Shown: positions 2,120 through 48,253 of the stretch, in pieces | Layout: each line of letters opens with the position of its first letter | Numbering within the stretch: the stretch's first letter is position 1 | Source: an uncultured Oscillospiraceae bacterium | GTDB lineage: Bacteria > Bacillota > Clostridia > Oscillospirales > Acutalibacteraceae | Assembly (NCBI GenBank): GCA_905211675.1 | Contig: CAJMBP010000001.1 | Span: forward strand, 1-48,253 | Length of the DNA: 48,253 bases | Direction of reading: 5' to 3' | Notes under the pieces: model-generated | Database searches by the model: none | Told to the model about the DNA's origin: nothing | What the model saw: only the letters and a program-made list of their open reading frames with translations | Position numbers and translations under genes: made by a program

Positions 2120-2314
2120 CATTTTTGTTAACTCTATCCGTTTAGGATAACAAAGTCCCCCACCCTCTTTTTGGGGGTGGGCGGCAATCAAAGGGCATAA
2201 GCGTTTTGGCAAGCAACTAATAATGATCTCTCTATTATGTTTCTTTTTTACCGCAAGACGTTTGTGCTCTTTGATTGCCGAAAAGCAATAATTAAAAAAG
2301 GAGGAGTAATTTCT

Positions 2315-25363: not shown

Positions 25364-25434
25364 TTAGATTTCCCCCAAACAATTACTTTAAAATTTTATT
25401 GCTTTAACGCTTTTATGCGTTAAAGTACGGTATT

Positions 25435-25463
25435 ATTATACTATCACCCGTGCAATAAGTCAA
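25435..25463 (-). promoter_or_regulatory. SigA-type promoter for the ABC importer operon
   Basis: On the minus strand: TTGACT (25463-25458), a 17-nt spacer, TATAAT (25440-25435). The leader carries the hairpin CTTTAACGC-ATAAAA-GCGTTAAAG. Confidence 0.55.
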
Positions 25464-25490
25464 GCGTTTTATTTTAATCGACAGCGGAAA

Positions 25491-26216
25491 TTATTTGTAA
25501 ACGGCAATACCCTTTCGCTTGTGCTCGCTCGCTTTATGCATACGCTCGATTATTTTTTTGTTTTCTTCGGCGATATTGCCGCCGTTTATATATGCGTCAA
25601 GCTCGGCATAGCTTACGCCCATTTCGGTTTCATCGGTCTGCCCGTCAAAGAGCGCCGCCGACGGTGCCTTTTCGATTATACGGACAGGGGCGTCAAGGTA
25701 TTTTAAAAATTCGTACACTTCGGTAACGGTAAGGTCGGCTATAGGATTAAAGTCGTGCGCGCCGTCACCCCATTTGGTGAAATAACCAACATAAGCCTCG
25801 CTTTTATTGCCGGTGCCTGCAACCAAACGGCCCTCCGCCGCGGCAACCGCATAAAGAGTAAGCATACGAAGTCGCGGAGCTATGTTTGCAAGCGCCGCGG
25901 AATTCATTTCGGCAACGCCCTCAAGCGCTTTGAGCTCGGCTTCTTTTACGGGGGTTAAATCAACCGTGCGTGTTTCGATACCGTACCTTTCGGCAACCGA
26001 TTTTGCATCGGCGGTGTCCTCATCGTAATTTCTTTTGGAGGTGCAGGGCAGTATAATACCCACCGTGTTGTCGCACGCCGCTTTACAGAGTATTCCCACC
26101 AAGGCGGAATCTTTACCTCCGCTGTTTCCGAAAACAATACCCTTTGAGCCGCTGTCGGCAAGAATATTTTTTATAAAAGCAACCCTTTTTTCAAATTCAA
26201 CCTTGTAATCACGCAT
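25491..26216 (-). CDS. nadE: NAD+ synthetase, single-domain (NadE1-type) enzyme
   Basis: The PP-loop is GNSGGKDSAL. There are 241 aa with no fused C-N hydrolase domain. The RBS is AAGAGG. Confidence 0.92.
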   Translation of the reverse strand: MRDYKVEFEKRVAFIKNILADSGSKGIVFGNSGGKDSALVGILCKAACDNTVGIILPCTSKRNYDEDTADAKSVAERYGIETRTVDLTPVKEAELKALEGVAEMNSAALANIAPRLRMLTLYAVAAAEGRLVAGTGNKSEAYVGYFTKWGDGAHDFNPIADLTVTEVYEFLKYLDAPVRIIEKAPSAALFDGQTDETEMGVSYAELDAYINGGNIAEENKKIIERMHKASEHKRKGIAVYK

Positions 26217-26231
26217 AAAAATAACCTCTTT

Positions 26232-27004
26232 TCAGTATAATTCGGGGCGTCGGTCACGAAATACGGGGATTTTTCCGCAAATTTCGGAAAACGCCTGTAT
26301 GTCGCAATCCGCCGTTATAATCTGCTGACCCTCACCGGCAATCGCCAATGTTTTGCCAAGCGGGTCAATAATCGAAGAATTTCCGCCGTAGAGCGTTCTA
26401 TCGGCTTGACCGCAGGAATTACAGCAAACGACAAATATTTGATTTTCAATAGCCCGTGCCGTTGTCAGACTGCGCAGATGAAAAACACGTTCGGCAGAGA
26501 TACAACAAAAAGCACATCAAGCCCCTGCAAAGCAAGGCGCCTCGTAAGCTCGGGAAAGCGCAGATCATAACAAATGATAACGCCGCACCTTACACCGTCA
26601 AGCGTAAAGCGGCACAGGCGGTCTCCCTTTGTGTAGTAATTGTCCTCTCCCATAGGGGTAAAAAGATGCGTTTTATCATAGCTTGCTATGCACTCGCCCT
26701 TTCGGTTAAAAACCGTAGCGGTATTAAACACCCTACCGTCACGAACATTTGACACCGATCCTGCAACAATGTTTACGCCGTATTTTTTTGCCAAGGCGCC
26801 TATACACAAATTTACCTCTTTGCAGTCATTGCAACACAGCTGATTAAGATTTTCTTTCGGAAAGAAGCCCGTATTCCATGTTTCGGGTAAAACCAAGACA
26901 TCGGGCTTTTGTTTTACCGCTTCGCTTATAAGCTTTTCGGCACGGCAAAAATTCTCTTGCGGCATGCCGAGCTTCATATCCATTTGCAGGCAGGCAACCC
27001 TCAT
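26232..27004 (-). pseudogene. Carbon-nitrogen hydrolase (nitrilase superfamily) gene interrupted by a frameshift; candidate glutaminase partner of NadE
   Basis: Frame A (27004-26465) encodes MRVACLQMD...LPETW(E)...YDKTHLF(K)...IICYDLRFPE(C)...LDVLFVVS, then a premature stop. A second frame, open from 26516 to 26232, encodes AERVFHLRSLTTARAIENQIFVVCCN...YGGNSSIIDPLG...FRDRRPELY*. Both frames are open across 26468-26516, so a single indel near 26490-26500 joins them. Confidence 0.75.
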
Positions 27005-27009
27005 AACCG

Positions 27010-28200
27010 TTACCCCTTTTTAAGCAGAGTGCAAAGTCGGTTTGCAGCTTCCTTTGTTTCTTCGGGATTGCCGAAGGTCGAAAAGCGGAAATAGCCTTTT
27101 CCGCATTCGCCGAAGCCGTCACCGGGTATGCCTACTACCTGAATTTCATTAAGCAGGTAATCGAAAAAGTCCCAACCGCTCATATTGTCGGGGCACTTCA
27201 TCCATATATACGGCGAATTTTTGCCGCCGACATACCAAATACCCGCGGCATCAAGCGCCTCCATAAAATATGAAGCATTTTTCTTGTAAACGCTTAAATT
27301 TTCGTGAATCTGACGCTGTCCTTCGGGGGTAAATACTGCTAAAGCACCCTTTTGAAGAATATAGGAAACGCCGTTTGTTCTGGTTTCGCGGTTGCGTGAC
27401 CACATTTCGTTTAAATTCATACCGCCGCGAACAAGATTGCACGGAACAACAGTGTAACCGAGTCGTGTGCCTGTAAAGCCTGCGGTTTTTGAGAGCGAAC
27501 AAATTTCAATAGCGCATGTATCCGCACCGTCTATTTCATAAATGCTGTGCGGAATATCGCTTTCCTCAATAAATATCTCATACGCCGCATCAAATAAAAT
27601 AACGGCACCGATTTCGTTTGCATAGTCAACCCAAGCCTTCAACTGACTGCGGTTAAACACAGCACCTGTTGGGTTATTAGGTGAACATATATAAATAATA
27701 TCTGTCTCTACATTTTTGTCGGGTTTTGGTAAAAAACCGTCTTTTTCTCCTGCGGCTAAATGAATAACCTTTCTGCCTGCGAGTATATTTGTGTCAACAT
27801 ATTCGGGATATGCAGGTTCAATTACCATTACGGTGTTGTCCCGTTCAAAAAGCTCGAGAATATCGCCTAAGTCATCACAAGCACCGCTTGAAACAAAAAT
27901 TTCATTCTGTGAAACCGAAGCGCCCATTTTGCCGTAATATTCCGCAATGGCGCGGCGAAGGTCGGCATCGCCTACCTCGGGCATATAACCGTGAAAGGTT
28001 GCGGCATTCGCCTGATCGTCAACCGCTTTATGAAGCGCTTTAATAACAGCGTCGCACAGCGGCAACGACACATCGCCCACACCCATTCTCAAAACATTTT
28101 TATCGGGATTTGCCTCGAGATACTCATTGGTTTTGCGATAGATTGTGTTAAACAAATATGTGTCTTTAAGTTCTTTGTATCTTGTGTTGGGTTTTAACAT
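27010..28200 (-). CDS. dapL: LL-diaminopimelate aminotransferase-like class I aminotransferase
   Basis: YLFNTI...LRMGVGDVSLPL, CSPNNPTG, the PLP-lysine block SLSKTAGFTGTRLGYTVVP, and GGKNSPYIWMKCP are DapL-type blocks. The protein is 396 aa. Confidence 0.8.
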   Translation of the reverse strand: MLKPNTRYKELKDTYLFNTIYRKTNEYLEANPDKNVLRMGVGDVSLPLCDAVIKALHKAVDDQANAATFHGYMPEVGDADLRRAIAEYYGKMGASVSQNEIFVSSGACDDLGDILELFERDNTVMVIEPAYPEYVDTNILAGRKVIHLAAGEKDGFLPKPDKNVETDIIYICSPNNPTGAVFNRSQLKAWVDYANEIGAVILFDAAYEIFIEESDIPHSIYEIDGADTCAIEICSLSKTAGFTGTRLGYTVVPCNLVRGGMNLNEMWSRNRETRTNGVSYILQKGALAVFTPEGQRQIHENLSVYKKNASYFMEALDAAGIWYVGGKNSPYIWMKCPDNMSGWDFFDYLLNEIQVVGIPGDGFGECGKGYFRFSTFGNPEETKEAANRLCTLLKKG

Positions 28201-28259
28201 ATTTTGTTTCTCCTTTGTATGTGTCAGCGGTATGTTAATGCTTTAATACCGTTATCGTA

Positions 28260-31200
28260 TTATTCGGCGTCAATAGTTGATATGCCCATTGTGACCTCTT
28301 CAAGCACATCAAGAAGCATTCTCACCGTGTCAAGTGAGGTAAGCATTGTAATGTTGTTCTGTGCCGCGCATTGGCGTATTGCAATGCCGTCACCGAAATG
28401 CTTGCCCGAAAGAATGGCGCGCGTGTTGATAACATAGCTGACATAGCCTGCGCGTATAGAATCCAATACCTCTTGACTGCCTTCGCTGGGTTTATGTCTT
28501 ATCCGCGTGCGAATTCCGTTTTCTTTCAAGACTTCGCCCGTAAGCGAAGTGGCTTCAATATTGAATCCCATATTGTAAAATCTGCGCACCAAAGGCAGTG
28601 TTTCTTCCTTGTCTTCGTCGGCAACGCTTACAAGCACCGTTCCGTAATTGCGAAGCTTAAGCCCCGACGCCACCATAGCCTTGTAAACCGCACGGTGAAG
28701 CTTTTTGTCGTAACCTATAGCCTCGCCCGTAGATTTCATTTCGGGCGAAAGGTAGGCGTCCATACCGCGAAGCTTTGAAAAGGAAAATGCCGGAGCCTTA
28801 ACATAATAGCGCTCCTTTTCTTTTGGATACCGAGCAAAAATTCCCTGCTCACTCAGCGACACACCTAAATTACATCGGGTTGCTATATCGGCAAGGCTGT
28901 AGCCCGTGGCTTTTGATAAAAACGGCACCGTTCTCGAAGAACGGGGATTAACCTCTATAATATAAACCTCGTCGTGTTCATCAACAATAAACTGTATATT
29001 GAAAAGTCCTATAATTCCAATTCCCAAACCGAGCTTTTCGGTATAATCGAGAATGGTGTTTTTAACCTTTTGCGAAATACTGTATGTGGGATATACGCTT
29101 ATAGAGTCACCCGAATGAACACCGGTTCGCTCAACAAGCTCCATAATACCCGGAACAAACACACGCTGACCGTCGCAAACCGCGTCAACCTCGACCTCTT
29201 TACCCTTAATGTATTTATCTACCAAAACGGGCTTATCAACATCAATTTCAACGGCGGTTTTAAGGTAATTACGCAGCGCCGCTTCCTTAGCGACTATCTG
29301 CATAGCTCTGCCGCCCAATACAAAGCTCGGGCGAACAAGCACAGGGTACCCGATTTCCTCGGCGGCCTTTACGCCCGCTTCTACGCTTGTCACCGCCCTG
29401 CCCTTAGGTTGCGGGATGCCCAGAGAGCTTAACAGCTTTTCAAAAGCATCACGGTTTTCGGCGCGCTCGATAGCGTCGCAATCCGTGCCGATTATCTTTA
29501 CGCCTCGGGCGCTGAGCGGCGCCGCCAAAGAGATAGCCGTTTGACCGCCCAGTGTTGCAATAACTCCCTCGGGCTTTTCGAGCTCTATAATATTCATAAC
29601 ATCTTCTACGCAAAGCGGCTCAAAATAAAGCTTATCCGAGCAGGTGTAGTCGGTAGAAACCGTTTCGGGATTGTTGTTTATAATAATTGCCTCATAGCCC
29701 GAAGCCTTTATGGTTTGCACCGCGTGAACGGTAGAATAGTCAAACTCTACACCCTGACCTATGCGTATGGGTCCCGAACCGAGCACAATGATTTTCTTTT
29801 TGTCAGAAACAACCGATTCGTTTTCCTGCTCATAGGTGGAATAAAAATACGGAATGTAACTTTCAAACTCCGAAGCGCAGGTGTCAATCATTTTATAAAC
29901 GGGAAGAATACCGTTTGCTTTTCTTAAATTGAAAACCTCTTCCTCGGTCATATTCCAAAACTGCGCGATAGCCTTGTCTGAAAAGCCCATCTTTTTAGCA
30001 CAGCGAAGCACATTTATATTTCCGCAGTTTTGTTTTACTTCATTTTCTTCATCTACAATATTACGCAGTTTGCGTATAAAAAATCTGTCAATCGCCGTTA
30101 TCTCGGCAATGCTGTCTATGCTTTCACCCAAACGCAAAAGGCGGGCAATCGCATAAATACGGTCGTCGGTACCTATTTTAATATAGTCACAAAGCTCGTC
30201 ACGGGTCATGCCGTCAAACCTGGCGTAATAAAGGTGACAAAGCCCTATTTCAAGAGAACGAATTGCTTTCAACAGGCTTTCTTCAACCGTTCTGCCTACG
30301 CTCATAACCTCGCCTGTGGCCTTCATCTGAGTAGAAAGCGAGTTGTTGGCGTCTGCAAATTTATCAAACGGAAAACGCGGCATTTTGGTAACAACATAGT
30401 CAAGCGCCGGCTCAAACGACGCGGGCGTGTTGGCAATTTGAATTTCGTCGAGCGTCATACCTACGCCGATTTTTGCCGATACGCGAGCTATAGGGTAACC
30501 GCTTGCCTTTGAGGCGAGAGCCGACGAACGCGAAACTCTCGGATTGACCTCAATTAAATAATACTTAAAAGAATTAGGGTCAAGTGCAAACTGCACATTG
30601 CAGCCGCCCTCAATTTTAAGCGCGCGAATAATTTTAAGCGCGCTGTCCCGCAGCATTTGATATTCCTTGTTAGTAAGCGTTTGAGAAGGGCAAACTACAA
30701 TGGAGTCGCCCGTGTGTATTCCGACAGGGTCAAGATTTTCCATATTACAAATAGTAATAGCGGTGTCGTTGCTGTCACGCATTACCTCATATTCGATTTC
30801 TTTATAACCCTTAATGCTCTTTTCGATAAGAACCTGATTCACAGGAGAAAGCGAAAGTGCATTTTTCATAAGCGGTAAAAACTCCGCCTCGTTATCGGCA
30901 AAGCCGCCGCCGGTTCCGCCGAGCGTAAAGGCAGGACGCAAAACTACGGGATAGCCGATTTTTTGTGCAACCGCCAAGCCCTCCTCAACAGAGCTTGCTA
31001 TGTCCGACGGCAAAACGGGCTCGCCCAATTCCTCGCAAAGCTCTTTAAACAACTCGCGGTCCTCGGCGCGCTCAATACTGCTGCTGCGGGTTCCGAGCAG
31101 TTCTGTGCGGCACTCTTCAAGAATGCCCTTCTTTTCAAGCTGCATTGCAAGGTTAAGCCCAGTCTGACCGCCGATACCCGGCAAAATTGCGTCGGGGCGC

Positions 31201-31442
31201 TCATAACGGATAATCTTCGCAATGTATTCAAGCGTCATCGGTTCCATATAAACCTTATCGGCAATAGAGGTATCGGTCATAATGGTAGCAGGATTGGAAT
31301 TGCACAGAACAACCTCATAGCCCTCTTCCTTTAAAGCGATGCACGCCTGTGTTCCCGCATAGTCGAATTCAGCCGCCTGACCTATAACAATAGGCCCCGA
31401 ACCGATAACAAGCACTTTTTTGATATCTGTTCTTTTAGGCAT
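28260..31442 (-). CDS. carB: Carbamoyl-phosphate synthase large subunit
   Basis: The 1060-aa protein has duplicated ATP-grasp halves ([24 protein letters not shown] / [19 protein letters not shown]) and a C-terminal MGS-like domain. Confidence 0.97.
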
Positions 31443-32529
31443 TTTTGAATTCCTCCATCAATTTTATAAAGCAGTCAAACAAATAGGCGCTGTCCTGCGG
31501 ACCGGGTGCGCTTTCGGGATGATACTGAACGCTGAACACTTTATCTTTATCGCATTTCACGCCTTCTACGGTATTGTCAAGCAGATTTATATGCGTTACC
31601 GAAAGCGGAGTGTTTTTAAGGCTTTCGGCGTCAACCGCATAGGAATGATTTTGCGAAGTGATTTCAATTTTATTTGTTTCAAGATTTCTGACGGGATGAT
31701 TACCGCCGCGGTGTCCGAACTTCAATTTATAGGTTTTAGCCCCGTAAGCCAAGGATATAATTTGATGGCCGAGACAAATACCGAAAATAGGATACCTACC
31801 TATCAGTTCTTTTATTGTCTCAACTGTTTGCGGCACATCGGTAGGGTCGCCCGGACCGTTTGAAATAAAAATTCCGTCGGGGTCAAGTGCCATTATCGCC
31901 TCGGCAGGCGTGTTCCACGGAACTGCCGTTACCTTACAGCCGCGTTTGTTAAGTGAGCGTACTATGTTCATTTTCATACCGCAGTCAATGGCTACCACTC
32001 GGTAATTCTGTTTTTCGGCATTGTGAATGGCAATTTTATCACAGCTTACCCTCGATACTGCGTCGGTAGGCAGCTTTGCAGATTTTAAAATTTTAAGTCC
32101 GTCCTCTAAAGAAGTGGTAACATCGGTTATAAGAACCTTTTGACTGCCATAGTCACGAATTGAGCGATTCAGCTTTCTTGTGTCAACGCCGTATATTCCG
32201 ACAACGCCGAAGCGCTTCATTACATCGGACAGCGTTTGTGTGCTTCTGAAATTAGAGGGCTCATCGTTGTACTCATGAACTATAAGCGCGCCGATTGTAA
32301 TATTATCTCTTTCAAAGTCGTCGTCAGCCATACCGTAATTACCTATAAGCGGATAGGTCATAACTACAGCCTGATCGGTATATGACGGATCTGAAAGTAT
32401 TTCCTGATAACCTACCATAGAGGTGTTAAAAACAATTTCAAGTACACACTGCCTGTCTGCACCGAAGCCATAGCCTAAATATTCTCGGCCGTCCTCTAAA
32501 ATCAGTTTTTTGTCAAATTCTTTTATCAT
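31435..32529 (-). CDS. carA: Carbamoyl-phosphate synthase small (glutaminase) subunit
   Basis: The class I GATase triad context is [10 protein letters not shown] ... QYHPE. I placed the start at ATG 32529 (MIKEFDKK) after AAGGTGA. There is an 8-nt overlap with carB. Confidence 0.95.
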
Positions 32530-32539
32530 AACCGTCACC

Positions 32540-35643
<3,104 letters not shown>

Positions 35644-35683
35644 TCATAGGTTGGGTATGTAGGTTTTTTTACGACACTATATG

Positions 35684-37216: not shown

Positions 37217-37231
37217 TGTATCACCTGTTCC

Positions 37232-38647: not shown

Positions 38648-38673
38648 GTTGTGTCTCCTTAATTTTTAACATT

Positions 38674-39948: not shown

Positions 39949-39961
39949 AAATATACCCCTT

Positions 39962-40675
39962 TTATATACGCTCGGTAAGGCGTTTCATTACTTCGGCATA
40001 AGCATCTTCAACTCCGCCGAGGTCACGGCGGAATCTGTCTTTGTCAAGCTTTTCGCCGGTTTTTGTGTCCCACAGTCTGCAGGTGTCGGGGCTTATTTCA
40101 TCGGCAAGCACAATGGTGCCGTCCGACAGTCTGCCGAATTCCAACTTAAAGTCAACCAATGTTACGCCGCACTCGGCCCAAAACGCTTTAAGCTGCTCAT
40201 TTACACCGAAAGCATACCTTTTGATTGTTTCAATTTCATCTGCGGTGGCAAGCTTCATGGCGATAGCGTGATAGCTGTTCATGAGCGGGTCGCCGAGTTC
40301 ATCGTTTTTATAAGAAAATTCAATAGTCGGTGCTTCAAAAACAAAGCCTTCCTCAACACCGTAACGCTTTGAAAACGAGCCTGCGGCAATGTTGCGTATA
40401 ATAACTTCTAACGGTACAATCGAAACCTTTTTCACAACAGTTTCGCGGTCGTTAATTTCTTCGACATAGTGGGTTGGAATGCCCGCCTTTTCAAGACGCT
40501 CCATAAGAAGATTGCTAATTCGGTTGTTGATAACGCCCTTGCCTGCGATTGTTCCCTTTTTGAGCCCGTTAAACGCCGTGGCATCGTCTTTATAAGAAAC
40601 GATAAGCAGTTCGGGGTTCTCGGTCGCAAACACTTTTTTTGCTTTTCCTTCGTACAGCTGTTCTCTTTTGGTCAT
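39962..40675 (-). CDS. purC: Phosphoribosylaminoimidazole-succinocarboxamide (SAICAR) synthase
   Basis: LYEGKAK.VF, EVIIRNIAAGS and ADEISPDTCRLWD are family blocks. The RBS is GGAGG. Confidence 0.96.
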   Translation of the reverse strand: MTKREQLYEGKAKKVFATENPELLIVSYKDDATAFNGLKKGTIAGKGVINNRISNLLMERLEKAGIPTHYVEEINDRETVVKKVSIVPLEVIIRNIAAGSFSKRYGVEEGFVFEAPTIEFSYKNDELGDPLMNSYHAIAMKLATADEIETIKRYAFGVNEQLKAFWAECGVTLVDFKLEFGRLSDGTIVLADEISPDTCRLWDTKTGEKLDKDRFRRDLGGVEDAYAEVMKRLTERI

Positions 40676-40725
40676 AGTTTATATACCTCCAAATATTATT
40701 AACGGCCTTAAATAATAACGCCTTT

Positions 40726-40782
40726 AAAAACAAGAAAACGGCAATGACGTTTTAATGAGCAAACATTAAAGACGCCTTTGCC
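40726..40782 (-). promoter_or_regulatory. Terminator-like hairpin plus U-tract inside the purC-operon leader (candidate attenuator)
   Basis: On the minus strand: GGCAA-A-GGCGT-C-TTTAATG [TTTGCT] CATTAAA-ACGTC-A-TTGCC. That is about 17 bp with one mismatch and one bulge and a hexaloop. It is followed by GTTTTCTTGTTTTT and begins about 8 nt after the predicted transcription start. Confidence 0.55.
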
Positions 40783-40796
40783 TTTTTTACCCGAAT

Positions 40797-40825
40797 ATTA
40801 TACTCTTTTTATCGGAATTTGTCAA
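40797..40825 (-). promoter_or_regulatory. SigA-type promoter of the purC...nadE operon
   Basis: On the minus strand: TTGACA (40825-40820), a 17-nt spacer, TATAAT (40802-40797); both hexamers match the consensus exactly. Confidence 0.6.
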
Positions 40826-40897
40826 CCACTTAAGGCAAGGTTTTAAAAAAATCTGAAGTCCGAAAAAAATTTATGCCACAGTCTGTCAACAAACATT

Positions 40898-40930
40898 AAA
40901 AGGCAAAAGCGCCGTGTTAAAACGGCGCCT
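40898..40930 (-). terminator. Rho-independent terminator after the ECF S-component gene
   Basis: On the minus strand: GGCGCCG-TTTTAACA-CGGCGCT, followed by TTTGCCTTTT. Confidence 0.7.
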
Positions 40931-40932
40931 TT

Positions 40933-41463
40933 TTACATTTTCATAAGCTTTTCGTGATAAAGCCTGTATATTCCGCATTTCCAGCATAAAAGCATACCCA
41001 AAACGGCACCTACCGCCGCTTGAAGTATTTGGTAGGGAAGCTTCATTATTGCGTATTCGGGGGTGCTGTATATAAAAGCCCTTCCGAGAGAGTATCCGAC
41101 TACCATTATTACGGCACCGATTGCAACACCGATACCCGAAGCCAAAACGCGATGCTTTTTCATAACATAATTCGCAAAAAGCGAAATTACCACTGCCTGT
41201 AAGCCGTGTGTAACAAGAGAAACAAACATAGGAGCAGGATAAAAGAACAGGTCGCCGAGAAAGGCTCCGATACCGCCTACAATAAAGGCAGCAACAGGGT
41301 CTAAAATAATAGCGGCGGTGCAGATAACAATATCATTCATATACAAATGACCGCCCGGAACGGGAACCCCGAAAGAGCTTAATGCAATATTTATGGCCAT
41401 AAACATAGCCGTTGTGCACAGCCATACCGTAGTTTTTTGCGTTGCTTTGTTTTTGTTTCCCAT
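40933..41463 (-). CDS. ECF transporter S (substrate-capture) component, substrate unknown
   Basis: A 176-aa, about 6-TM protein with FMAINIALSSFGVPVPGGHLYMNDIVI and GGIGAFLGDL blocks typical of ECF S components. ATG 41463 follows AAGGGG; the ORF-track TTG at 41466 lies one codon upstream of it. Confidence 0.78.
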   Translation of the reverse strand: MGNKNKATQKTTVWLCTTAMFMAINIALSSFGVPVPGGHLYMNDIVICTAAIILDPVAAFIVGGIGAFLGDLFFYPAPMFVSLVTHGLQAVVISLFANYVMKKHRVLASGIGVAIGAVIMVVGYSLGRAFIYSTPEYAIMKLPYQILQAAVGAVLGMLLCWKCGIYRLYHEKLMKM

Positions 41464-41529
41464 CAATTTACCCCTTGCTTGATTTATCGGCTTTATTAAG
41501 CATAATACTTAACTGAAATCAACCAGTAT

Positions 41530-41559
41530 ATTATATATGCCGACCGGTTGCTTTGTCAA
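41530..41559 (-). promoter_or_regulatory. SigA-type promoter for the ECF S-component gene
   Basis: On the minus strand: TTGACA (41559-41554), an 18-nt spacer, TATAAT (41535-41530). Confidence 0.5.
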
Positions 41560-41620
41560 TGGGTAAACAGCATTAAAATAATGCATTATCAGATGATTTG
41601 TATATTAAATTTTCATAGTT

Positions 41621-42205
41621 TTAAGAATATGTTTTAATAATCTCTTCGGCAACCTCACGTTTCGATATGCAACGGTCCATCGCCTGCTTTTCTATGTATC
41701 GGTGAGCTCCCGGCTCGTCCATGCTGATTTGACTGATAAGAAGCCACTTCGCTCGGTTTACAATACGTATTTCCTCCATTTTTTCTTCAATTGAAAGGGT
41801 TTTCTTTTCGGCCTTACGCAATCGCTCGCGCGCGCTTGACATCCAACCGAGCGCCGTTATAACGGTGGGCTTTGACATAGGCTTTGACAGCGTGAACACA
41901 CCGTGCTCGGCAACCTTGTCAAATATTTCGGCATGTAATTCGGCACGCACTATCAACAGCACAACCGTACCCTTTGAATTGCAGACATCAATGGCAAACC
42001 GCGTGCCCATATCGTCGGGCAGGGGTGAATTTATAATCACATAATCAAATGCCCGTTCCGCAAAAGCACGCTTTGCGGCGCTTATGCTCGACGCCGTACA
42101 AACAGGATTATAGTTTGATTCGGGGAGTAAATCAAAAAGAGCGGTGTTGAAGTTTTCGGCCGCAGAAACGACAAGAACGCTGTAAACCCGTTCTTTAAGA
42201 CTCAT
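41621..42205 (-). CDS. ANTAR-domain RNA-binding antiterminator with a pseudo-receiver domain (AmiR/NasR/NitR-like)
   Basis: The C-terminal ANTAR domain is IVNRAKWLLISQISMDEPGAHRYIEKQAMDRCISKREVAEEII. The N-terminal REC-like fold lacks the acidic pair (VLVVSAAEN) and the phospho-acceptor (DYVIINSPLPDDMG, with Asn at the Asp position). The RBS is AAAGGAGGGG. Confidence 0.88.
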   Translation of the reverse strand: MSLKERVYSVLVVSAAENFNTALFDLLPESNYNPVCTASSISAAKRAFAERAFDYVIINSPLPDDMGTRFAIDVCNSKGTVVLLIVRAELHAEIFDKVAEHGVFTLSKPMSKPTVITALGWMSSARERLRKAEKKTLSIEEKMEEIRIVNRAKWLLISQISMDEPGAHRYIEKQAMDRCISKREVAEEIIKTYS

Positions 42206-42238
42206 GTTACACCCCTCCTTTTCAAATTTTAAACCGTC

Positions 42239-43450
42239 TTATTTGCCACAGTAAATTTCCGTAATTGCCGACGGCACATACGCTTTAATAAATTCGCTCC
42301 GAGCGGCAATTTTACGGGCTTCATCCAAATTTTGGGGAAGCTTTTGATACTTTGCCAGCGTATCCGAATCGGCTTTATACAAATTGATATCGGCTACGGC
42401 AGGTATTTCAAGCTTGTTCTGCAACCCATAAAGCCCCGCATATATAATAAGCGCAAACGCCAAATACGGATTTGCGGTAGGGTCGGGTGAGCGCAACTCG
42501 GCACGGCGATATTCGCCGACTGCCGCAGGAATACGCACAAGCTGCGAACGGTTTTCGCTCGACCATGATACATAACCGGGTGCTTTATCCGAGCCGAAAC
42601 GTTTGTATGAAGCATCGGTAGGATTAAGAAAAAGGGTCATTTCAACAGCCTTTTCAAGTACCCCCGCAATCATATTGCAAAGGTCTTGTGAGCCTTTTGA
42701 ATTTTTAACCGACATATTTATATGAAATCCGTTACCGGGTTTGTTTTTAAGCGGCTTCGGTGAAAAGTTCGCCCACAAACCGTTGCGACGGGCAACCGTT
42801 TTTACCACCGTCTGAAAGGTAATTGCATTGTCGGCGGCGGTCAGGGCGTCGGAATATCTGAAATCTATCTCGTTTTGTCCGGGGCCCTGCTCGTGATGAG
42901 AGCTTTCGGGGCGTATGCCCATTTGCTCTAATGTAAGACAAATTTCACGCCTTATATTTTCGCCTCGGTCTTCGGGCGCAATGTCCATATATCCCGCTTC
43001 GTCATACGGAATGTCGGTTGGTTTTCCGCTTTCATCCAACTGAAAAAGATAAAATTCCTGCTCGGCGCCGAAGGCGAACGAATATCCCGCTTTTTCGGCG
43101 TCGTCAACCGCTTTTTTAAGCAAATATCTGGTATCGCACTCAAAAGGTCTTCCGTCGGGATAGGTTATGTGCGAAAACATACGCACAACCTTGCCGTGTT
43201 CCGGTCTCCACGGAAGCAGCATAAGCGTTTCGGGCTCGGGATGAAGCAATAAATCACACCTGCTTTCATCACCGAAGCCTGCTATAGCAGACGCGTCAAA
43301 TGCAATACCGTATTCAAAGGCACGGGGCAGTTCCGCAGGCATTATAGATATATTTTTTTGTTTGCCGAATACATCACAAAAAGCAAGACGAATAAACTTT
43401 ACATCCTCCTCGTTGACGTACTGCATTACCTCTTCCTTGGAATACTTCAT
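42239..43450 (-). CDS. glnA: Glutamine synthetase (type I family, short 403-aa form)
   Basis: EQEFYLF, HHEQGPGQNEIDF, GNGFHINMS, SWSSENRSQLVRIP and ELRSPDPTANPYL are GS catalytic blocks. Confidence 0.93.
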   Translation of the reverse strand: MKYSKEEVMQYVNEEDVKFIRLAFCDVFGKQKNISIMPAELPRAFEYGIAFDASAIAGFGDESRCDLLLHPEPETLMLLPWRPEHGKVVRMFSHITYPDGRPFECDTRYLLKKAVDDAEKAGYSFAFGAEQEFYLFQLDESGKPTDIPYDEAGYMDIAPEDRGENIRREICLTLEQMGIRPESSHHEQGPGQNEIDFRYSDALTAADNAITFQTVVKTVARRNGLWANFSPKPLKNKPGNGFHINMSVKNSKGSQDLCNMIAGVLEKAVEMTLFLNPTDASYKRFGSDKAPGYVSWSSENRSQLVRIPAAVGEYRRAELRSPDPTANPYLAFALIIYAGLYGLQNKLEIPAVADINLYKADSDTLAKYQKLPQNLDEARKIAARSEFIKAYVPSAITEIYCGK

Positions 43451-43470
43451 AATGTTTTACCTACTTTCTG

Positions 43471-44190
43471 TCAATTTGCCACATACATCTGCTTGTACGG
43501 ATTTTTACTGTCGGGTGTAACAACGGTAAAGGGCGAAGCCAAAACCTTTTCTGCATCATAACCGAATAATTCGCAGTATCTTGACACATAAGATTCAAGC
43601 TCTTTCATATCGGACTCATCTGCGGGACGGGCTGTAACCTGACCCGGAAACTCGATATCCTTGCAGTCGCTTCTCAAAAACATTTTTCCGCCGTGCATTC
43701 CCGTGCAGGGGAAGAAACCGACAATTTTTCCGTCTTTTGCCTCAAGGCCGAGAACAACAATAACGCCCCCTGCCTGATACTCGCCGAGAAAGCTGCCCGC
43801 CGTACCGCCGATAACCATAACGGGTACCTTTTCTTTATATTCCTTCATATGTATGCCTGCACGGTATCCGGCATTGCCTTTTACAAAAATTTTGCCGCCT
43901 CGCATGGCATAGCCTGCGGCATCTCCGATATTGCCGTGAATAACAATTTCACCCTCGTTCATGGTGTCGCCTACCGCGTCCTGAGCGTTGGCGTTTACGG
44001 TTATTGCGGCGCCGTTGAGATACGCGCCGAGAGCATTGCCCGGAACGCCTTCAACCGTTACGCTCTTATCCGACATTCCGGCGGCAATAAAGCGTTGACC
44101 GCAGCAATTTGTTATTGTGACATCTCCGCCTTGAGCGCGAAGCTTATCGTTTAAAGCCTTGTAATCAAGGTCTTTTGCATCGATTAACAT
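43471..44190 (-). CDS. Glutamate synthase domain-3-like protein (GXGXG motif beta-helix)
   Basis: Repeated G.GN..G turns: VEGVPGNALGAYLNG, IHGNIGDAAGYAMRGGKIFVKGNAGYRAG. The RBS is GGAGGTG. Confidence 0.88.
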   Translation of the reverse strand: MLIDAKDLDYKALNDKLRAQGGDVTITNCCGQRFIAAGMSDKSVTVEGVPGNALGAYLNGAAITVNANAQDAVGDTMNEGEIVIHGNIGDAAGYAMRGGKIFVKGNAGYRAGIHMKEYKEKVPVMVIGGTAGSFLGEYQAGGVIVVLGLEAKDGKIVGFFPCTGMHGGKMFLRSDCKDIEFPGQVTARPADESDMKELESYVSRYCELFGYDAEKVLASPFTVVTPDSKNPYKQMYVAN

Positions 44191-44193
44191 ATA

Positions 44194-45426
44194 TTATACC
44201 ACACCTCCGAACTTTTTTCTACGAATTTTTGAAGAAAACGCAAAAGTTGTAGCACTTTTCTTTAAAATGTCAAAGTCAAGCGAATCAATCGGTGTTTTTT
44301 CGCGTATAACCGATGTGTAAATACCGGCGCGTTCATTGACACCGATAAGTATAAATCCCTTCAAAAGTCCGTCCTTTACAAAAAGCCGTTTTATAGAATT
44401 TTCGTCCTTTTCCTCATACATTTCGCCGTCATAACTTCCGGCGGTCATTGCGTGTAAACCGAAAAAGCCTATCGAGTTCATCGGTATAGCATTATCAAAA
44501 AGCTCGTCACCGCCTGCCATATTTACACCTGCGGTATGCCCCTGCATATATGCGTTAGGCATAATGGCAAGAACCCTTTTTTGACCCAATGAAATATCGT
44601 CGCCCTCGGTGCAGTCGCCTGCGGCGTAAACATCTTTTACAGTGGTTTCCATACGGTCGTTTACAATAATTCCTCTATTCACTTCACCGCCTATTTGCTT
44701 TACCAAAGCGGTGTTTGCCCGCACACCTACCGCAAGCACAAGAACATCGAAATCAACCGTTTTTCCGCTGTTCATAAATGCTGTGTTGCCTTCAAAATAC
44801 GCCGCGCTGTCACCCAACATAAAGCGAATACCGTTTGCCTCTAAATGCTTTTGCATTATTGCGGCACATTCGGCATCAAGAATACTTGAAAGTATATGGT
44901 CGGCAAGGTCGCATACAGTAATGCCGGCAACTCGCGAGTGAAGCCCCTCGGCACATTTAAGACCTATAAGACCGGCACCCACAATCAATACCTTACTGTC
45001 TTTATCTATTGCTTTTTCAAGAGCCAAAGTGTCGTCAAGCGTCATAAAGCTGAACTTCTTTTCAACCGTTTGAAGCCCTTTAAAAGGCGGAATAAAGGGC
45101 GAAGAACCCGTTGCCGCGCAAACAGACGAATACGGCAGCTCGGTGCCGTCGTCAAGAATTACTTTTTTGGTGTCGCAGTCAATTTTTACCGCCTTTTTAC
45201 CGTAAATTACATTGCAATTTGCCTTTTCGTAAAAATCGGCACTGCGGTAGTTCATACGCTCTGTGTCGGTTTTGTTTTCGAGATAGTATGAAATAAGCGG
45301 GCGGCAGTAAACCGGGTGTTTTTCTTCGGACACTACGGTAATTTCAGATTTTTTATCAACACTGCGTATGCCCTCGATAGCGCCCGCCGCGGCAACACCG
45401 TTACCTATAATTACATACTGCTTCAT
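44194..45426 (-). CDS. NAD(P)/FAD-dependent pyridine-nucleotide oxidoreductase (electron-input subunit of the split GOGAT)
   Basis: The FAD Rossmann motif is YVIIGNGVAAAGA. The second dinucleotide fold is VLIVGAGLIGLKCAE. AAGDC is a further family block. There is an ATGA overlap with the upstream ferredoxin gene. Confidence 0.85.
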   Translation of the reverse strand: MKQYVIIGNGVAAAGAIEGIRSVDKKSEITVVSEEKHPVYCRPLISYYLENKTDTERMNYRSADFYEKANCNVIYGKKAVKIDCDTKKVILDDGTELPYSSVCAATGSSPFIPPFKGLQTVEKKFSFMTLDDTLALEKAIDKDSKVLIVGAGLIGLKCAEGLHSRVAGITVCDLADHILSSILDAECAAIMQKHLEANGIRFMLGDSAAYFEGNTAFMNSGKTVDFDVLVLAVGVRANTALVKQIGGEVNRGIIVNDRMETTVKDVYAAGDCTEGDDISLGQKRVLAIMPNAYMQGHTAGVNMAGGDELFDNAIPMNSIGFFGLHAMTAGSYDGEMYEEKDENSIKRLFVKDGLLKGFILIGVNERAGIYTSVIREKTPIDSLDFDILKKSATTFAFSSKIRRKKFGGVV

Positions 45427-45863
45427 TCGTCGTCACCCCGTTCCTCATAAACAATGGCCCTGTTCGGGCATCCCTTAACACAGGCAGGCTCTCCGCAGGT
45501 GTTTTTAAGACAAAGCTCGCATTTTTGCATAACGCCTTCGGCACTCGGAGCAAGCGAGCCGTAAGGGCACACAAGCACACAGGTAAAACAGCCCACGCAT
45601 TTATTTTTATCAATTACTACCACGCCGTCTTTTTGAGAAATCGCGCCCGCAATACAGCTTTTTACACATATAGGGTCGGTGCAGTGACGGCAGGAAACCG
45701 CGTAGGATATTTTATCGTCTCCTTCAATATGAATACGCGGATAAATCGGTTTGCCTTTAAGAGCGGTTGCCATATCCGAAATGCCGGAATTTGCAAAAGC
45801 GCAGTTATATTCGCAAAGATGGCAGCCGAGGCACCATTCTTCATTTACATATACTCTTTTCAT
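45423..45863 (-). CDS. 4Fe-4S dicluster ferredoxin-domain protein
   Basis: There are multiple CxxCxxCxxxC(P) motifs (CLGCHLCEYNC, CRHCTDPICVKSC, CVGCFTCVLVCP, CELC...CVKGCP). Confidence 0.85.
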   Translation of the reverse strand: MKRVYVNEEWCLGCHLCEYNCAFANSGISDMATALKGKPIYPRIHIEGDDKISYAVSCRHCTDPICVKSCIAGAISQKDGVVVIDKNKCVGCFTCVLVCPYGSLAPSAEGVMQKCELCLKNTCGEPACVKGCPNRAIVYEERGDDE

Positions 45864-45869
45864 TTTTCA

Positions 45870-47375
45870 TCACTCTCCCGCGTGAGAAATTCCGAGAATT
45901 TCAAGTTCTTTATCGGTCATACCGATGCCGCGAAGCATAAGACGGTTACCGCGCAAAGCCTCAATAGAGTTTATACCCATTCCGCCCATAAGCTCCTTGA
46001 TTTCATGCTGCCAAGCGTGCATAAGGTTGACAAGGCGTTCACTGCCGACATCGGGATTAAGGCGTTTTACAAGCTCAGGGCGCTGGGTTGCAATTCCCCA
46101 GTTACATTTGCCGGTCTGACAGGTTCGGCAAAGGTGACAGCCGAGCGCCAGCAAGGCCGCAGTCGCCACATAGCAAGCGTCGGCGCCCAAAGCTATAGCC
46201 TTTACAACATCCGAGGCGCTTCTGATACTGCCGCCTACAACCAACGAAACATTATTGCGTATGCCCTCGTCACGCAGGCGTTGGTCAACCGCCGCCAAGG
46301 CAAGCTCAATCGGAATTCCTACATTGTCGCGTATGCGGGTAGGCGCCGCGCCCGTACCGCCGCGAAAGCCGTCGATTGCAATAATGTCGGCGCCGCTTCT
46401 TGCAATGCCGCTTGCTATTGCCGCAATATTATGCACGGCGGCAACCTTTACAATGACAGGTTTTTGGTAATTTGTTGCCTCTTTAAGTGAGAAGACAAGT
46501 TGACGCAGGTCTTCAATAGAATAAATGTCGTGATGAGGAGCCGGCGAAATGGCGTCGGAGCCCTCGGGAATCATACGCGTGCGTGAAACATCACCCACTA
46601 TTTTGGCACCGGGCAGATGACCGCCGATACCCGGCTTTGCGCCCTGACCCATTTTAATTTCAATAGCGGCGCCTGCGCTTAAATAATCTTCGTGAACACC
46701 GAAACGCCCGCTTGCAACCTGAACGACGGTGTTAGCGCCGTAACGGTAAAAATCTTCATGCAGTCCGCCCTCGCCCGTGTTATAAAGAATACCGAGCTCA
46801 CATGCCGCGCGGGCAAGCGAAGCGTGGGCGTTATAGCTTATCGAGCCGTAGCTCATTGCAGAGAACATAACGGGCATCGAAAGTTCTATCTGAGGGGGTA
46901 ACTCACAGTTAATTTTTCCGTTTGCGTCACGCTCAATTTTGCTCGGCTTTTTACCCAAAAATACCCGAGTTTCCATAGGCTCGCGCAACGGGTCAATAGG
47001 CGGATTTGTAACCTGAGAAGCGTTTATTAGTATCTTGTCCCAATATACAGGGAGCGGCTTGGGGTTACCCATCGATGAAAGCAAAACGCCGCCGCTGCTC
47101 GCCTGCTTGTATATCTCTTTGATAGTGTCGCTTTGCCAGTTCGCGTTTTCGCGGAACGTACAGTCGTTCTTGACGATCTTCAGCGCATGTGTGGGGCAAA
47201 GCGATACACAGCGCTGGCAATCGACGCATTTCGACTCATCGCTGAGCATGACCTTACCGTCAGCGTCGTAGCTGTGTACGCCGTTGGCGCACTGCCGTTC
47301 ACAGACGCGACAGGCTATACAGCGATCGTGATTACGCACGATCTCAAATTCGGGAACTATATAATTGACCGACAT
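45870..47375 (-). CDS. gltB: Glutamate synthase FMN/2-oxoglutarate domain (GltB domain 2) with an N-terminal 2x[4Fe-4S] ferredoxin module
   Basis: The N-terminus has CIACRVCERQCA and CVDCQRCVSLCP. The core has MSYGSIS, IKMGQGAKPGIGGHLPG, SPAPHHDIYSIEDL and IDGFRGGTGAAP. The Cys-rich LGCHLCRTCQTGKC block follows. Confidence 0.92.
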   Translation of the reverse strand: MSVNYIVPEFEIVRNHDRCIACRVCERQCANGVHSYDADGKVMLSDESKCVDCQRCVSLCPTHALKIVKNDCTFRENANWQSDTIKEIYKQASSGGVLLSSMGNPKPLPVYWDKILINASQVTNPPIDPLREPMETRVFLGKKPSKIERDANGKINCELPPQIELSMPVMFSAMSYGSISYNAHASLARAACELGILYNTGEGGLHEDFYRYGANTVVQVASGRFGVHEDYLSAGAAIEIKMGQGAKPGIGGHLPGAKIVGDVSRTRMIPEGSDAISPAPHHDIYSIEDLRQLVFSLKEATNYQKPVIVKVAAVHNIAAIASGIARSGADIIAIDGFRGGTGAAPTRIRDNVGIPIELALAAVDQRLRDEGIRNNVSLVVGGSIRSASDVVKAIALGADACYVATAALLALGCHLCRTCQTGKCNWGIATQRPELVKRLNPDVGSERLVNLMHAWQHEIKELMGGMGINSIEALRGNRLMLRGIGMTDKELEILGISHAGE

Positions 47376-48253
47376 CAGTACGCACCTTCCTTTACTTTTA
47401 CGATAACAGGCTCTCCGCCTGCGGGAGCATAAACGTTTTCGGCGTCGGGCTCCATGACACGGATAGCCGCTTCCTCGCTTGCGATGAACACCTTTTCACC
47501 CTTTTCGGCAACGACCATTGAACGGAGCTTCAGGCGGTCATTGAGCGCCATCATCCCGCCGTCGAAGGACAGCAGGATGGAGAACGGCCCGGTGATCAGC
47601 AGCGGGGCGAAGGTGTCCCGCAGGTAGGTGAGCGTCTCCCGCTTTTCCGGGGACTGCCGCCCGATGGTGTCCCAGAACGGCGCCGCGACCACGCCCGCCG
47701 CCTCTTCGAGGGTGAGCCCCTGCTTGCGCATGAGGTAGTCGAAAATATAGGTGATCACCTCGGTATCGGTCTGCAGCGTGCACCTGTAGCCGAACATTTC
47801 CACCCAGCGCCGGTTGGCGTCATAGGAGGAAATCTCGCCGTTGTGCCCCACGGCGCCATCCAGCAGGGCAAACGGATGCGCGCCGCCCCACCATCCCGGC
47901 GTGTTGGTCGGATACCGCCCGTGCGCCGTCCAGCAGTAGCCCGCGTATTCGTCGAGCTTGTAAAACGCACCGACATCCTCCGGATAGCCCACCGCCTTGA
48001 ACACGCCCATGTTTTTGCCGCTCGAAAACACATAGGCGCCGTCGATCTTCGTATTGACGGTGATCACGCACCGCGCCACGAACTCGCGCTCATCCAGCTG
48101 GCTGTCGACCAGCTTTGTATGAAGGGGCTGAACAAAATAGCGCCAGATCAGCGGCGCATCCGTAATGGCCGGGGTTTTTCGCACGGGGATCTTAGAAAGG
48201 TTGATGATCTCAAAATGCCTTTCTAAAAACGCCTCGCATGTTTTTTTCGCTTC
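47375..48253 (-). CDS. Glutamate synthase class-II glutamine amidotransferase domain (GltB domain 1), 5' partial: runs off the window
   Basis: AHGRYPTNTPGWWGGAHPF...VGHNGEISSY is the Ntn-GATase block. The reading frame stays open upstream of the ORF-track GTG at 48184 through to nt 48253 (...EAKKTCEAFLERHFEIINLSKIPVRKTPA...). The expected N-terminal Met-Cys is absent, so the true start lies beyond the window. The stop overlaps the next start by 1 nt. Confidence 0.85.
   Translation of the reverse strand, partial: EAKKTCEAFLERHFEIINLSKIPVRKTPAITDAPLIWRYFVQPLHTKLVDSQLDEREFVARCVITVNTKIDGAYVFSSGKNMGVFKAVGYPEDVGAFYKLDEYAGYCWTAHGRYPTNTPGWWGGAHPFALLDGAVGHNGEISSYDANRRWVEMFGYRCTLQTDTEVITYIFDYLMRKQGLTLEEAAGVVAAPFWDTIGRQSPEKRETLTYLRDTFAPLLITGPFSILLSFDGGMMALNDRLKLRSMVVAEKGEKVFIASEEAAIRVMEPDAENVYAPAGGEPVIVKVKEGAY

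Follow-up and report, generated by a model that had tools for sequence, protein, structure and literature searches.

The 48,253-nt stretch of DNA analysed here (hereafter the window) is contig CAJMBP010000001.1 of an uncultured Oscillospiraceae bacterium (assembly GCA_905211675.1). A 23-kb block of the window (25491-48253) makes up the larger share of a nitrogen island that spans about 36 kb and is carried by an uncultured species of gut Clostridia. The island is a regulon made of several adjacent transcription units, and not a single transcript. All of these units but one, a small transporter gene, feature a strong sigma-70 promoter and a common leader, in which a small hexaloop hairpin overlaps an intrinsic terminator, and which is probably switched by an ANTAR antiterminator protein encoded in the island itself. 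The 19 genes of the block, identified by NCBIfam and Pfam scans, are all on the minus strand and form three units. The first comprises five glutamate synthase (GOGAT) genes, a glutamine synthetase (GS) gene and the ANTAR gene; the second is a single gene for the S component of an energy-coupling factor transporter (ECF-S); the third is an 11-gene operon running from purC to nadE. The glutamate dehydrogenase (GDH) gene gdhA and a set encoding a type III GS (GS-III), an ammonium transporter fused to PII (Amt-PII) and AsnB are found, in divergent orientation, just outside the window in the contig of a near-identical metagenome-assembled genome (MAG).

The purC operon is preceded, where the sequence-only reading had placed it, by a sigma-70 promoter (TTGACA-17-TATAAT; 40797..40825, minus strand) with a 12/12 agreement to the consensus. 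The leader starts with the mini-hairpin AAAGGC[AAAGGC]GUCUUU (40768..40785, minus strand), whose hexaloop carries A1, A2 and G4, and which is the proposed antiterminator and protein-binding site. The intrinsic terminator of the leader (40726..40782, minus strand; hairpin 40740-40782, U tract 40726-40739) overlaps the mini-hairpin with its 5' arm. The whole leader folds at -30 kcal/mol (z = -3.4). Because the terminator alone is worth about -19 kcal/mol, and the mini-hairpin -4.5 kcal/mol, termination should be the default state. Leaders of the same make were found in dozens of gut and rumen Clostridia. In these, a conserved promoter is followed, about 12 nt after the -10 box, by AAAGGC[AANGNN]GUCUUU, a GC-rich hairpin and a U tract. 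The spacing from promoter to motif recurs across relatives, with 11-14 nt separating the -10 box from the hairpin, and nearly all units feature a fold of -19 to -43 kcal/mol ahead of the U tract. Such leaders are located upstream of GS-III, purC, gltAT, pyrG, GS, amtPII, purF, nadE, asnB, purA, guaA and glmS genes, and ahead of GDH operons as well.

Both structures are marked by compensatory changes. In 56 distinct instances of the mini-hairpin, 95.2% of the cells are paired, where shuffles give 85% and slid controls 42-61%; 33 cells are compensatory, a number reached by none of 500 shuffles. A G.U wobble is kept in 48 of the 56. The outer three stem pairs, which were free in the search pattern, change from A-U to U-A or G-C in a second leader class, AUGAGC[AARGGC]GUUCAU, which precedes gltAT and GS genes. 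The 5' arm of the terminator is made of hexaloop positions 3-6 plus the 3' strand of the mini-hairpin; compensatory changes occur at 6 of the 11 pairs of the terminator consensus, in which the 3' arm also has a pairing partner in hexaloop position 3. Alignment columns 12-21 are common to the mini-hairpin (4-9/16-21) and the terminator (12-23/38-49), and the two structures are thus mutually exclusive. As the search pattern fixed loop residues A2 and G4, the count was redone without any loop constraint. In this census, covering 98 leaders, AANGNN accounts for 52 of the 270 hexaloop hairpins that precede a T run (expected 1.6%), and the four most frequent loops all fit AANGNN. That the conserved AAAGGCGTCTTT acts at the DNA level, as a palindrome or operator, was considered and rejected, since the flanks show the covariation of paired RNA and loop position 3 is free to vary.

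A covariance model was built from 33 instances, leaving the window out. The purC leader is its top match in the window (47 bits, E = 1.7e-7). No further copy was detected in the window, either by pattern searches allowing up to three mismatches or by the model with filters off. A match at 13364-13411 on the minus strand (23 bits, E about 0.007), antisense within a DUF218 gene, was taken as a chance hairpin. In the MAG contig, the model found leaders ahead of gdhA (38 bits), GS-III (58 bits), purC (47 bits) and gltAT (22 bits, m2 class), the last one located behind a CTTGACA-17-TATAAT promoter. Four units of the island, gdhA, GS-III, gltAT and purC, bear therefore the element, and a single conserved leader before the purC operon and other island units favours the view of a module, put forward in the sequence-only reading. 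Rfam searches gave no gathering-level match in the window, and only a tRNA and a cobalamin riboswitch in seven related loci; relaxed scans of the leaders returned chance hairpins only. Explanations based on glutamine, purine, PRPP or ZTP riboswitches, PyrR or T-box elements were dropped, as no Rfam match to any of them was found in the window, the related loci or the leaders. Back-to-back promoters, with the two leader classes reading in opposite directions, are recurrent (loci L087-L166, for example L109, L126, L130 and L143). The two classes tend to split, ATGAGC[AARGGC]GTTCAT versus AAAGGC[AANGNN]GTCTTT, between GOGAT/GS-ANTAR or pyrG-purF units on one side and GS-III/asnB units on the other.

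Metagenome contigs were also scanned starting from the motif, with a 19-nt core, and at least 80 loci holding 82 matches were analysed. This motif-first sampling, which is independent, recovers the same regulon. Among the matches listed, 62 are followed by a chain of downstream genes, and in 55 of these a nitrogen gene comes first. The first gene encodes GS-III in 34 cases; the others are gdhA (6), purC (5), amt-PII (3), the Na+/glutamate symporter gene gltS (2), pyrG (2), nadE, glmS and purA (1 each), and 7 genes of other kinds. Chains of the same set host also pyrG (12), asnB (11), purF (10) and carAB.

The operon behind the purC leader includes, in order and all on the minus strand, purC (SAICAR synthase; 39962-40675; TIGR00081, 262 bits), purA (adenylosuccinate synthase; 38674-39948; NF002223, 490 bits), purB (adenylosuccinate lyase; 37232-38647; TIGR00928, 370 bits), guaA (glutamine-hydrolysing GMP synthase; 35684-37216; NF000848, 780 bits), pyrG (glutamine-hydrolysing CTP synthase; 33973-35586; NF003792, 833 bits), purF (glutamine PRPP amidotransferase; 32540-33976; TIGR01134, 506 bits), carA (carbamoyl-phosphate synthase glutaminase subunit; 31435-32538; TIGR01368, 478 bits), carB (large subunit of the same enzyme; 28260-31442; NF003671, 1489 bits), dapL (LL-diaminopimelate aminotransferase; 27010-28200; TIGR03542, 469.2 bits, equivalog cutoff 364.7), a nitrilase-like CN-hydrolase gene (26232-27004) and nadE (single-domain NAD+ synthase; 25491-26216; TIGR00552, 233 bits). 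Aspartate is the nitrogen donor for PurC and PurA, PurB releases fumarate, and glutamate is the donor for DapL. Genes are closely packed, the intergenic distances from purC to nadE being 13, 26, 15, 97, -4, 1, -8, 59, 5 and 15 nt; purF overlaps pyrG by 4 nt, and carB overlaps carA by 8 nt. Neither a GC-rich hairpin followed by a U run nor a good promoter was found in the two long spacers, guaA-pyrG (97 nt) and carB-dapL (59 nt). In the region 25000-44999, terminator-like matches (35, against 26.9 +/- 5.0 in shuffled sequences) and promoter-like matches (39, against 32.5 +/- 5.9) are not above expectation. The gene identities, the spacing of -8 to +97 nt and the lack of a convincing internal terminator, all noted in the sequence-only reading, hold on recalculation, and the set from purC to nadE is presumably transcribed as one unit. 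Past nadE no strong terminator was seen (25400-25463, minus strand), and some read-through of the operon into the transporter genes located beyond is possible. These genes encode a TrpX-like ABC substrate-binding protein, a permease and an ATPase, and are preceded by an 11/12 promoter and a weak AT-rich hairpin.

As had been stated, the operon is not organised by pathway. Of the set forming the classical Firmicutes pur operon (purEKBCSQLFMNHD) and purA, it has only purC, purA, purB and purF; neither the window nor the region just beyond holds purE, K, S, Q, L, M, N, H or D. Since gdhA and the GS-III-amtPII-asnB set are what lies past the window, the missing pur genes are not just outside. The proposal that the members share nitrogen-donor chemistry stands for most of them. 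It does not extend to PurL and PurQ, which are outside the island, nor to ECF-S and, in relatives, DapF, which are inside, and it fits DapL loosely.

Conservation was assessed in 80 loci, each from a distinct species, retrieved by searching for relatives of PurF (73-90% identity) in uncultured and a few cultured Clostridia, labelled in the records as Lachnospiraceae, Acutalibacteraceae, Oscillospiraceae and Ruminococcus. The window proteins were mapped onto these loci, and all the open reading frames (ORFs) of the loci were clustered. The order purC-purA-purB-guaA-pyrG-purF-carA-carB-dapL(-nit)-nadE recurs, whole or in part, in dozens of species, and is thus not unique to the assembly. The pyrG and purF genes are adjacent in 44 of the 80 loci, and in 29 of these they have the identical 4-nt overlap; the other gaps are mostly of 30 nt or less. 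The run from purC to dapL is found in at least six loci. Operons of relatives are enlarged by genes for AsnB, GS-III, the Amt-PII fusion, GlmS and DapF, as well as by gdhA and gltS, and the pur genes unrelated to nitrogen transfer are consistently absent. That asnB, glmS, GS-III, amt-PII, gdhA and gltS are gained, and other pur genes are not, argues for a module. So does the finding that GOGAT-GS-ANTAR or GS-ANTAR sets adjoin operons of the pyrG-purF type in several layouts, often divergent. In some relatives a single GS-ANTAR-pyrG-guaA unit carries the leader element.

The glmS gene is located between guaA and pyrG in loci L006, L028, L043 and L059. The glmS ribozyme was not detected by an Rfam gathering scan in two of these four loci, L006 and L059, and the nitrogen leader may therefore replace the usual Firmicutes control of glmS. 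The Amt-PII fusion, an ammonium transporter with a C-terminal PII domain (584-608 aa; L207 1304-3058, L051 3074-4828 and 17 other loci), stands in place of separate amtB and glnK genes.

The arrangement is reproducible. Exact copies of the window PurF were found on five contigs from separate samples, with the same neighbours wherever the contig is long enough. One of the five belongs to the human-gut MAG GCA_902473115.1, which shares 99.995% identity with the window across 21 kb. Given the same neighbours on five contigs and the same order in dozens of species, the arrangement is not an assembly artefact.

Upstream of the purC operon, GS, GOGAT and ANTAR genes are on the same strand, as originally described; they are not immediately upstream, as an ECF-S unit intervenes. 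The ECF-S gene (177 aa; 40933-41466, minus strand; PF07155, 90.7 bits) has no obvious link to nitrogen. It has a 12/12 sigma-70 promoter (41530..41559, minus strand) and is followed by an intrinsic terminator closing the upstream unit (40905..40932, minus strand; 11-bp stem with 6 GC pairs, and a U run). Because of this promoter and this strong terminator, the GS-GOGAT-ANTAR and purC units are separate transcripts. The concept of a single module for nitrogen assimilation and distribution is therefore retained as a module, but not as one transcript. A homologue of the ECF-S protein, 66% identical, is encoded close to purF in locus L076.

The GOGAT block (43471-48253, minus strand) consists of five split glutamate-synthase genes. 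These are gltAT, encoding the class-II glutamine amidotransferase subunit (47375..48253; detected by GltB N-terminal and purF/glmS amidotransferase models), gltFMN for the FMN/Fe-S domain (45870..47375; NF008730, 276 bits, GltB 864-1176; Pfam Glu_synthase), and the genes for a 4Fe-4S ferredoxin-type subunit (45423..45863), a FAD/NAD(P)H pyridine-nucleotide-disulfide oxidoreductase subunit (44194..45426; Pyr_redox_2) and a GXGXG protein corresponding to the GltB C-terminal domain (43471..44190; PF01493). The gltAT ORF runs off the window end and is 5'-truncated. Sequences from about 47100 to 48253 have a GC content of 0.59-0.66, against about 0.45 elsewhere, and identity to two otherwise identical assemblies (L086 and L207) falls there to 57-78%, with different break points. 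This suggests that the last 0.75-1.2 kb or so (from about 47100/47500), within gltAT and gltFMN, may be a chimeric contig end or a recombination hot spot. In locus L086 gltAT is split into two overlapping ORFs. The next gene encodes a short type-I-like GS (403 aa; 42239-43450; Gln-synt_N and Gln-synt_C), which scores 343 bits with TIGR00653, under the cutoff (429) of this type-I GS equivalog model. The genome encodes also the 698-aa GS-III. In relatives the short GS is always paired with the ANTAR protein, and is encoded just upstream of it. We speculate that it may serve as a sensor partner, and not as the principal enzyme of assimilation.

The ANTAR protein (194 aa; 41621-42205, minus strand; PF03861, 56.7 bits, cutoff 27.3) has its best PDB matches in Rv1626, AmiR and EutV, aligned across the ANTAR helices. 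Its receiver domain, compared with the NtrC and Rv1626 receivers, is degenerate: the acidic pair DD is replaced by SA, and the phospho-acceptor aspartate by asparagine (VIINSPLP). The Pfam Response_reg score (27.5) is below the cutoff (30.2). Having neither the acidic pocket nor the acceptor aspartate, the protein is probably not a phosphorylation-controlled response regulator of the EutV/PdtaR type. Since the receiver resembles in this respect that of AmiR, and not the phosphorylatable one of EutV, by analogy the protein is probably a pseudo-receiver regulator controlled by a protein partner or a ligand. The seven-gene composition (amidotransferase, ferredoxin-type glutamate synthase, 4Fe-4S protein, oxidoreductase, GXGXG protein, GS, ANTAR) is identical to that of Clostridium thermocellum Clo1313_2030-2036 (PMC4676874), five separate domain genes being followed by GS and ANTAR as in other clusters of the split clostridial/archaeal type. 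The ANTAR protein has been suggested to be an ammonia-responsive antiterminator (PMC4676874); NitR of solventogenic clostridia is, with this cluster, among the closest known systems. No target RNA is named there for the C. thermocellum protein. In contrast to the C. thermocellum cluster, the one in the island is joined to an 11-gene nitrogen-spending operon and to gdhA, GS-III, amt and asnB genes, with one common leader.

The targets of ANTAR proteins are hexaloop hairpins with A1 and G4, which overlap the 5' side of a terminator (PMC3369931), and ANTAR matches upstream of GS, GOGAT, Amt/PII and AsnB genes have been reported in Clostridia (Ramesh et al. 2012, PMC3369931). The island fits this description, having an ANTAR gene in the locus, an A1/G4 hexaloop, and a hairpin and a terminator excluding each other. 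It resembles in the same features EutV/eut, NasR/nasF, AmiR/ami and the regulons of PMC3369931, with which it shares also GS, GOGAT, Amt/PII and AsnB targets and the presence of the element in the operon of the regulator. By default, the leader terminator would form, and transcription would stop. Binding of the island ANTAR protein would stabilise the hexaloop hairpin and sequester the 5' arm of the terminator, so that RNA polymerase would read through. In this way, nearly every step spending glutamine, aspartate or glutamate nitrogen would be tuned to nitrogen status together with the capture of ammonia (GS, GOGAT, GDH, Amt). We infer from sequence both the role of the ANTAR protein as binding factor of the leader hairpin and the direction of the nitrogen response.

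The island differs from the known systems in several respects. The dual-hexaloop organisation (P1 plus P2) is replaced by a single hairpin at the very 5' end of the transcript. No upstream P1 was found, and none could fit, because only 11-14 nt are available between the -10 box and the hairpin; the apical loops of the terminators are variable, both in length and in sequence, and do not have A1/G4. Conservation is strong in the closing stem GGC/GUC, including its G.U wobble. Finally, the regulon adds purF, purCAB, guaA, pyrG, carAB, glmS, nadE and dapL, and the text form of Table S2 of PMC3369931 contains no terms for purine, pyrimidine, CTP synthase, carbamoyl-phosphate, GMP synthase or NAD synthetase. 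Bacillus-type pur operons (PurR, purine riboswitch) and pyr operons (PyrR) similarly rely on a choice between terminator and antiterminator in the leader. Unlike these, which are organised by pathway and sense an end product (purines, UMP/UTP), the operon described here mixes five pathways, omits the pur steps that take no nitrogen from glutamine or aspartate, and has its leader in common with ammonia-assimilation genes. No PyrR or purine riboswitch match was found by Rfam in the window and the seven related loci.

Several observations weigh against an island-wide ANTAR switch. Each unit has one hexaloop hairpin; the structure of the EutV-RNA complex led to redefine the minimal ANTAR motif as a single hexaloop (Walshe 2022, PMC8934654), but antitermination by EutV in vivo still requires P1, and hence two hairpins (PMC8934654). 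The essential genes purF, pyrG, guaA and nadE would be located behind a terminator that keeps them off by default, and substantial read-through, leaky or constitutive, has therefore to be assumed under normal growth. The element was not found in about half of the traceable purF loci, gene calls being crude in these, and the ECF-S gene is an island member with a perfect promoter but without the hexaloop leader. Compensatory changes derive largely from the two leader classes, and the covariation reflects thus few independent events. The grouping by chemistry is not exhaustive, as the glutamine-dependent PurL and PurQ are outside the island, and DapL, as well as the DapF found inside operons of relatives, fit it loosely. 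Binding, antitermination and nitrogen response are, moreover, predictions.

The leader could be real and yet be read by something else, such as a small riboswitch sensing nitrogen status through glutamine or 2-oxoglutarate, or another RNA-binding protein, the ANTAR protein controlling other targets. The single hairpin, in place of the classical dual hexaloop, is in line with this, as are the high conservation of the G.U wobble and of loop positions, and the presence of ANTAR genes in only a minority of the fetched loci, the flanks of which are limited. We consider this rather unlikely. The conserved core spans about 18 nt, and there are no additional conserved unpaired nucleotides from which a ligand pocket could be built; variation is free at positions 3, 5 and 6 of the loop, which covary with the terminator; no Rfam riboswitch, including that for glutamine, was matched; and an A1/G4 hexaloop placed over the 5' arm of a terminator is the exact ANTAR signature, found also at the operons encoding the ANTAR proteins. 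It is a less probable event still that the set from purC to nadE is split by internal promoters or processing into purCAB-guaA, pyrG-purF-carAB and dapL-nit-nadE, with the leader ruling the first genes only. The guaA-pyrG and carB-dapL spacers could house weak promoters, promoter-like hexamers occur within genes, and relatives begin operons at pyrG, purF, guaA, purA or nadE, each with its own leader. Nevertheless, promoter-like sites do not exceed the shuffled level, and none is in the two spacers; no internal terminator was found, two gene pairs overlap, and the window has exactly one leader element.

That the clustering is a historical accident, a gathering of generic, highly expressed biosynthesis genes or a MAG mis-assembly appears very improbable, and is largely refuted. 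Members unrelated to nitrogen (ECF-S, and DapF in relatives) and the chimeric look of the last 1 kb or so of the window would agree with it. However, five independent assemblies and many species have this order in common, the genes gained by relatives are for nitrogen transfer or assimilation, to the steady exclusion of the other pur genes, and nitrogen genes come first in 55 of the 62 motif-first cases among the matches listed. A common leader switched by the island ANTAR protein is the reading we prefer. In its widest form, which we advance tentatively, as possible, a single-hexaloop ANTAR regulon of gut and rumen Clostridia would place Amt-PII, GDH, GS-III and GOGAT under one attenuator with PurF, PurC/A/B, GuaA, PyrG, CarAB, GlmS, AsnB, NadE and DapL, according to donor chemistry and not to pathway. 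A protein partner, and not phosphorylation, would switch the aspartate-less receiver; the short GS, acting as a glutamine/ammonium sensor, is a candidate for this partner by analogy with AmiC-AmiR and GS-TnrA.

The nitrilase-like gene is a candidate for the glutaminase subunit of NadE, and the two had been presented as a functional pair. The CN-hydrolase gene is indeed adjacent to nadE, but it is frameshifted at about 26498 by a 7-bp deletion (CAGTGGC, which removes a conserved Q-W-P) relative to an intact 259-aa gene in the sister assembly GCA_964328625.1. The deletion is found also in GCA_902473115.1 and in locus L001. The gene is intact in locus L002, where the 259-aa homologue matches PF00795 with 169 bits. 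The deletion reflects either an error of the assembly or a pseudogene specific to the strain; should it be real, NadE of this strain would depend on ammonia only. In the Thermus thermophilus NAD synthetase TTC1538/1539 (PMC3376133), as in the window, a stand-alone nitrilase-family gene adjoins a single-domain nadE in one operon. The window differs from the two-subunit Thermus enzyme in that the nitrilase-like gene is frameshifted, and in many relatives nadE has no nitrilase gene. The adjacency of the two genes, with a 15-nt gap, agrees with a type C two-subunit glutamine-dependent NAD synthetase, but an intact G subunit is not encoded. From the sequence, a glutamine-using complex of NadE and nitrilase is a candidate only.

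The rest of the window encodes glycoside hydrolases, ABC transporters, TetR and AraC regulators and a malic enzyme. For two ORFs at 2-3046, one of 705 aa that is truncated by the window start and one of 269 aa, Pfam gave no match at E <= 1e-5. No tRNA was found in a scan of the window.

Parts of the picture are already known, namely the GOGAT-GS-ANTAR cluster of C. thermocellum (PMC4676874) and the nitrilase-nadE pair of Thermus (PMC3376133). No account was found of the operon, or of an ANTAR regulon including nucleotide and NAD amidotransferases, in a literature search whose coverage is incomplete, so that an earlier description is possible. What was not found described includes the operon apparently organised by chemistry, its physical and putative regulatory union with assimilation genes, the candidate single-hexaloop leader, and the predicted ANTAR nitrogen regulon reaching enzymes for purines, pyrimidines, NAD, amino sugars and diaminopimelate.

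Nitrogen control is described in textbooks for Proteobacteria (NtrBC/PII), Bacillus (TnrA/GlnR) and Actinobacteria (GlnR/AmtR). To our knowledge, it is poorly defined in the Clostridia dominating the human gut and the rumen. The signature formed by promoter, AAAGGC-AANGNN-GUCUUU and terminator is usable for mapping the regulon in thousands of MAGs. Lachnospiraceae bacterium G41 and Sarcina sp. DSM 11001 are carriers available in culture, which makes the model directly testable. The data suggest that a single hexaloop can be an ANTAR target, which bears on why EutV needs two. If the model is true, operons built on a common substrate chemistry, and not on a pathway, would have a natural example, and the capture of nitrogen would be coupled to its spending on nucleotides, NAD, amino sugars and the cell wall by just one ANTAR protein together with one short RNA element.

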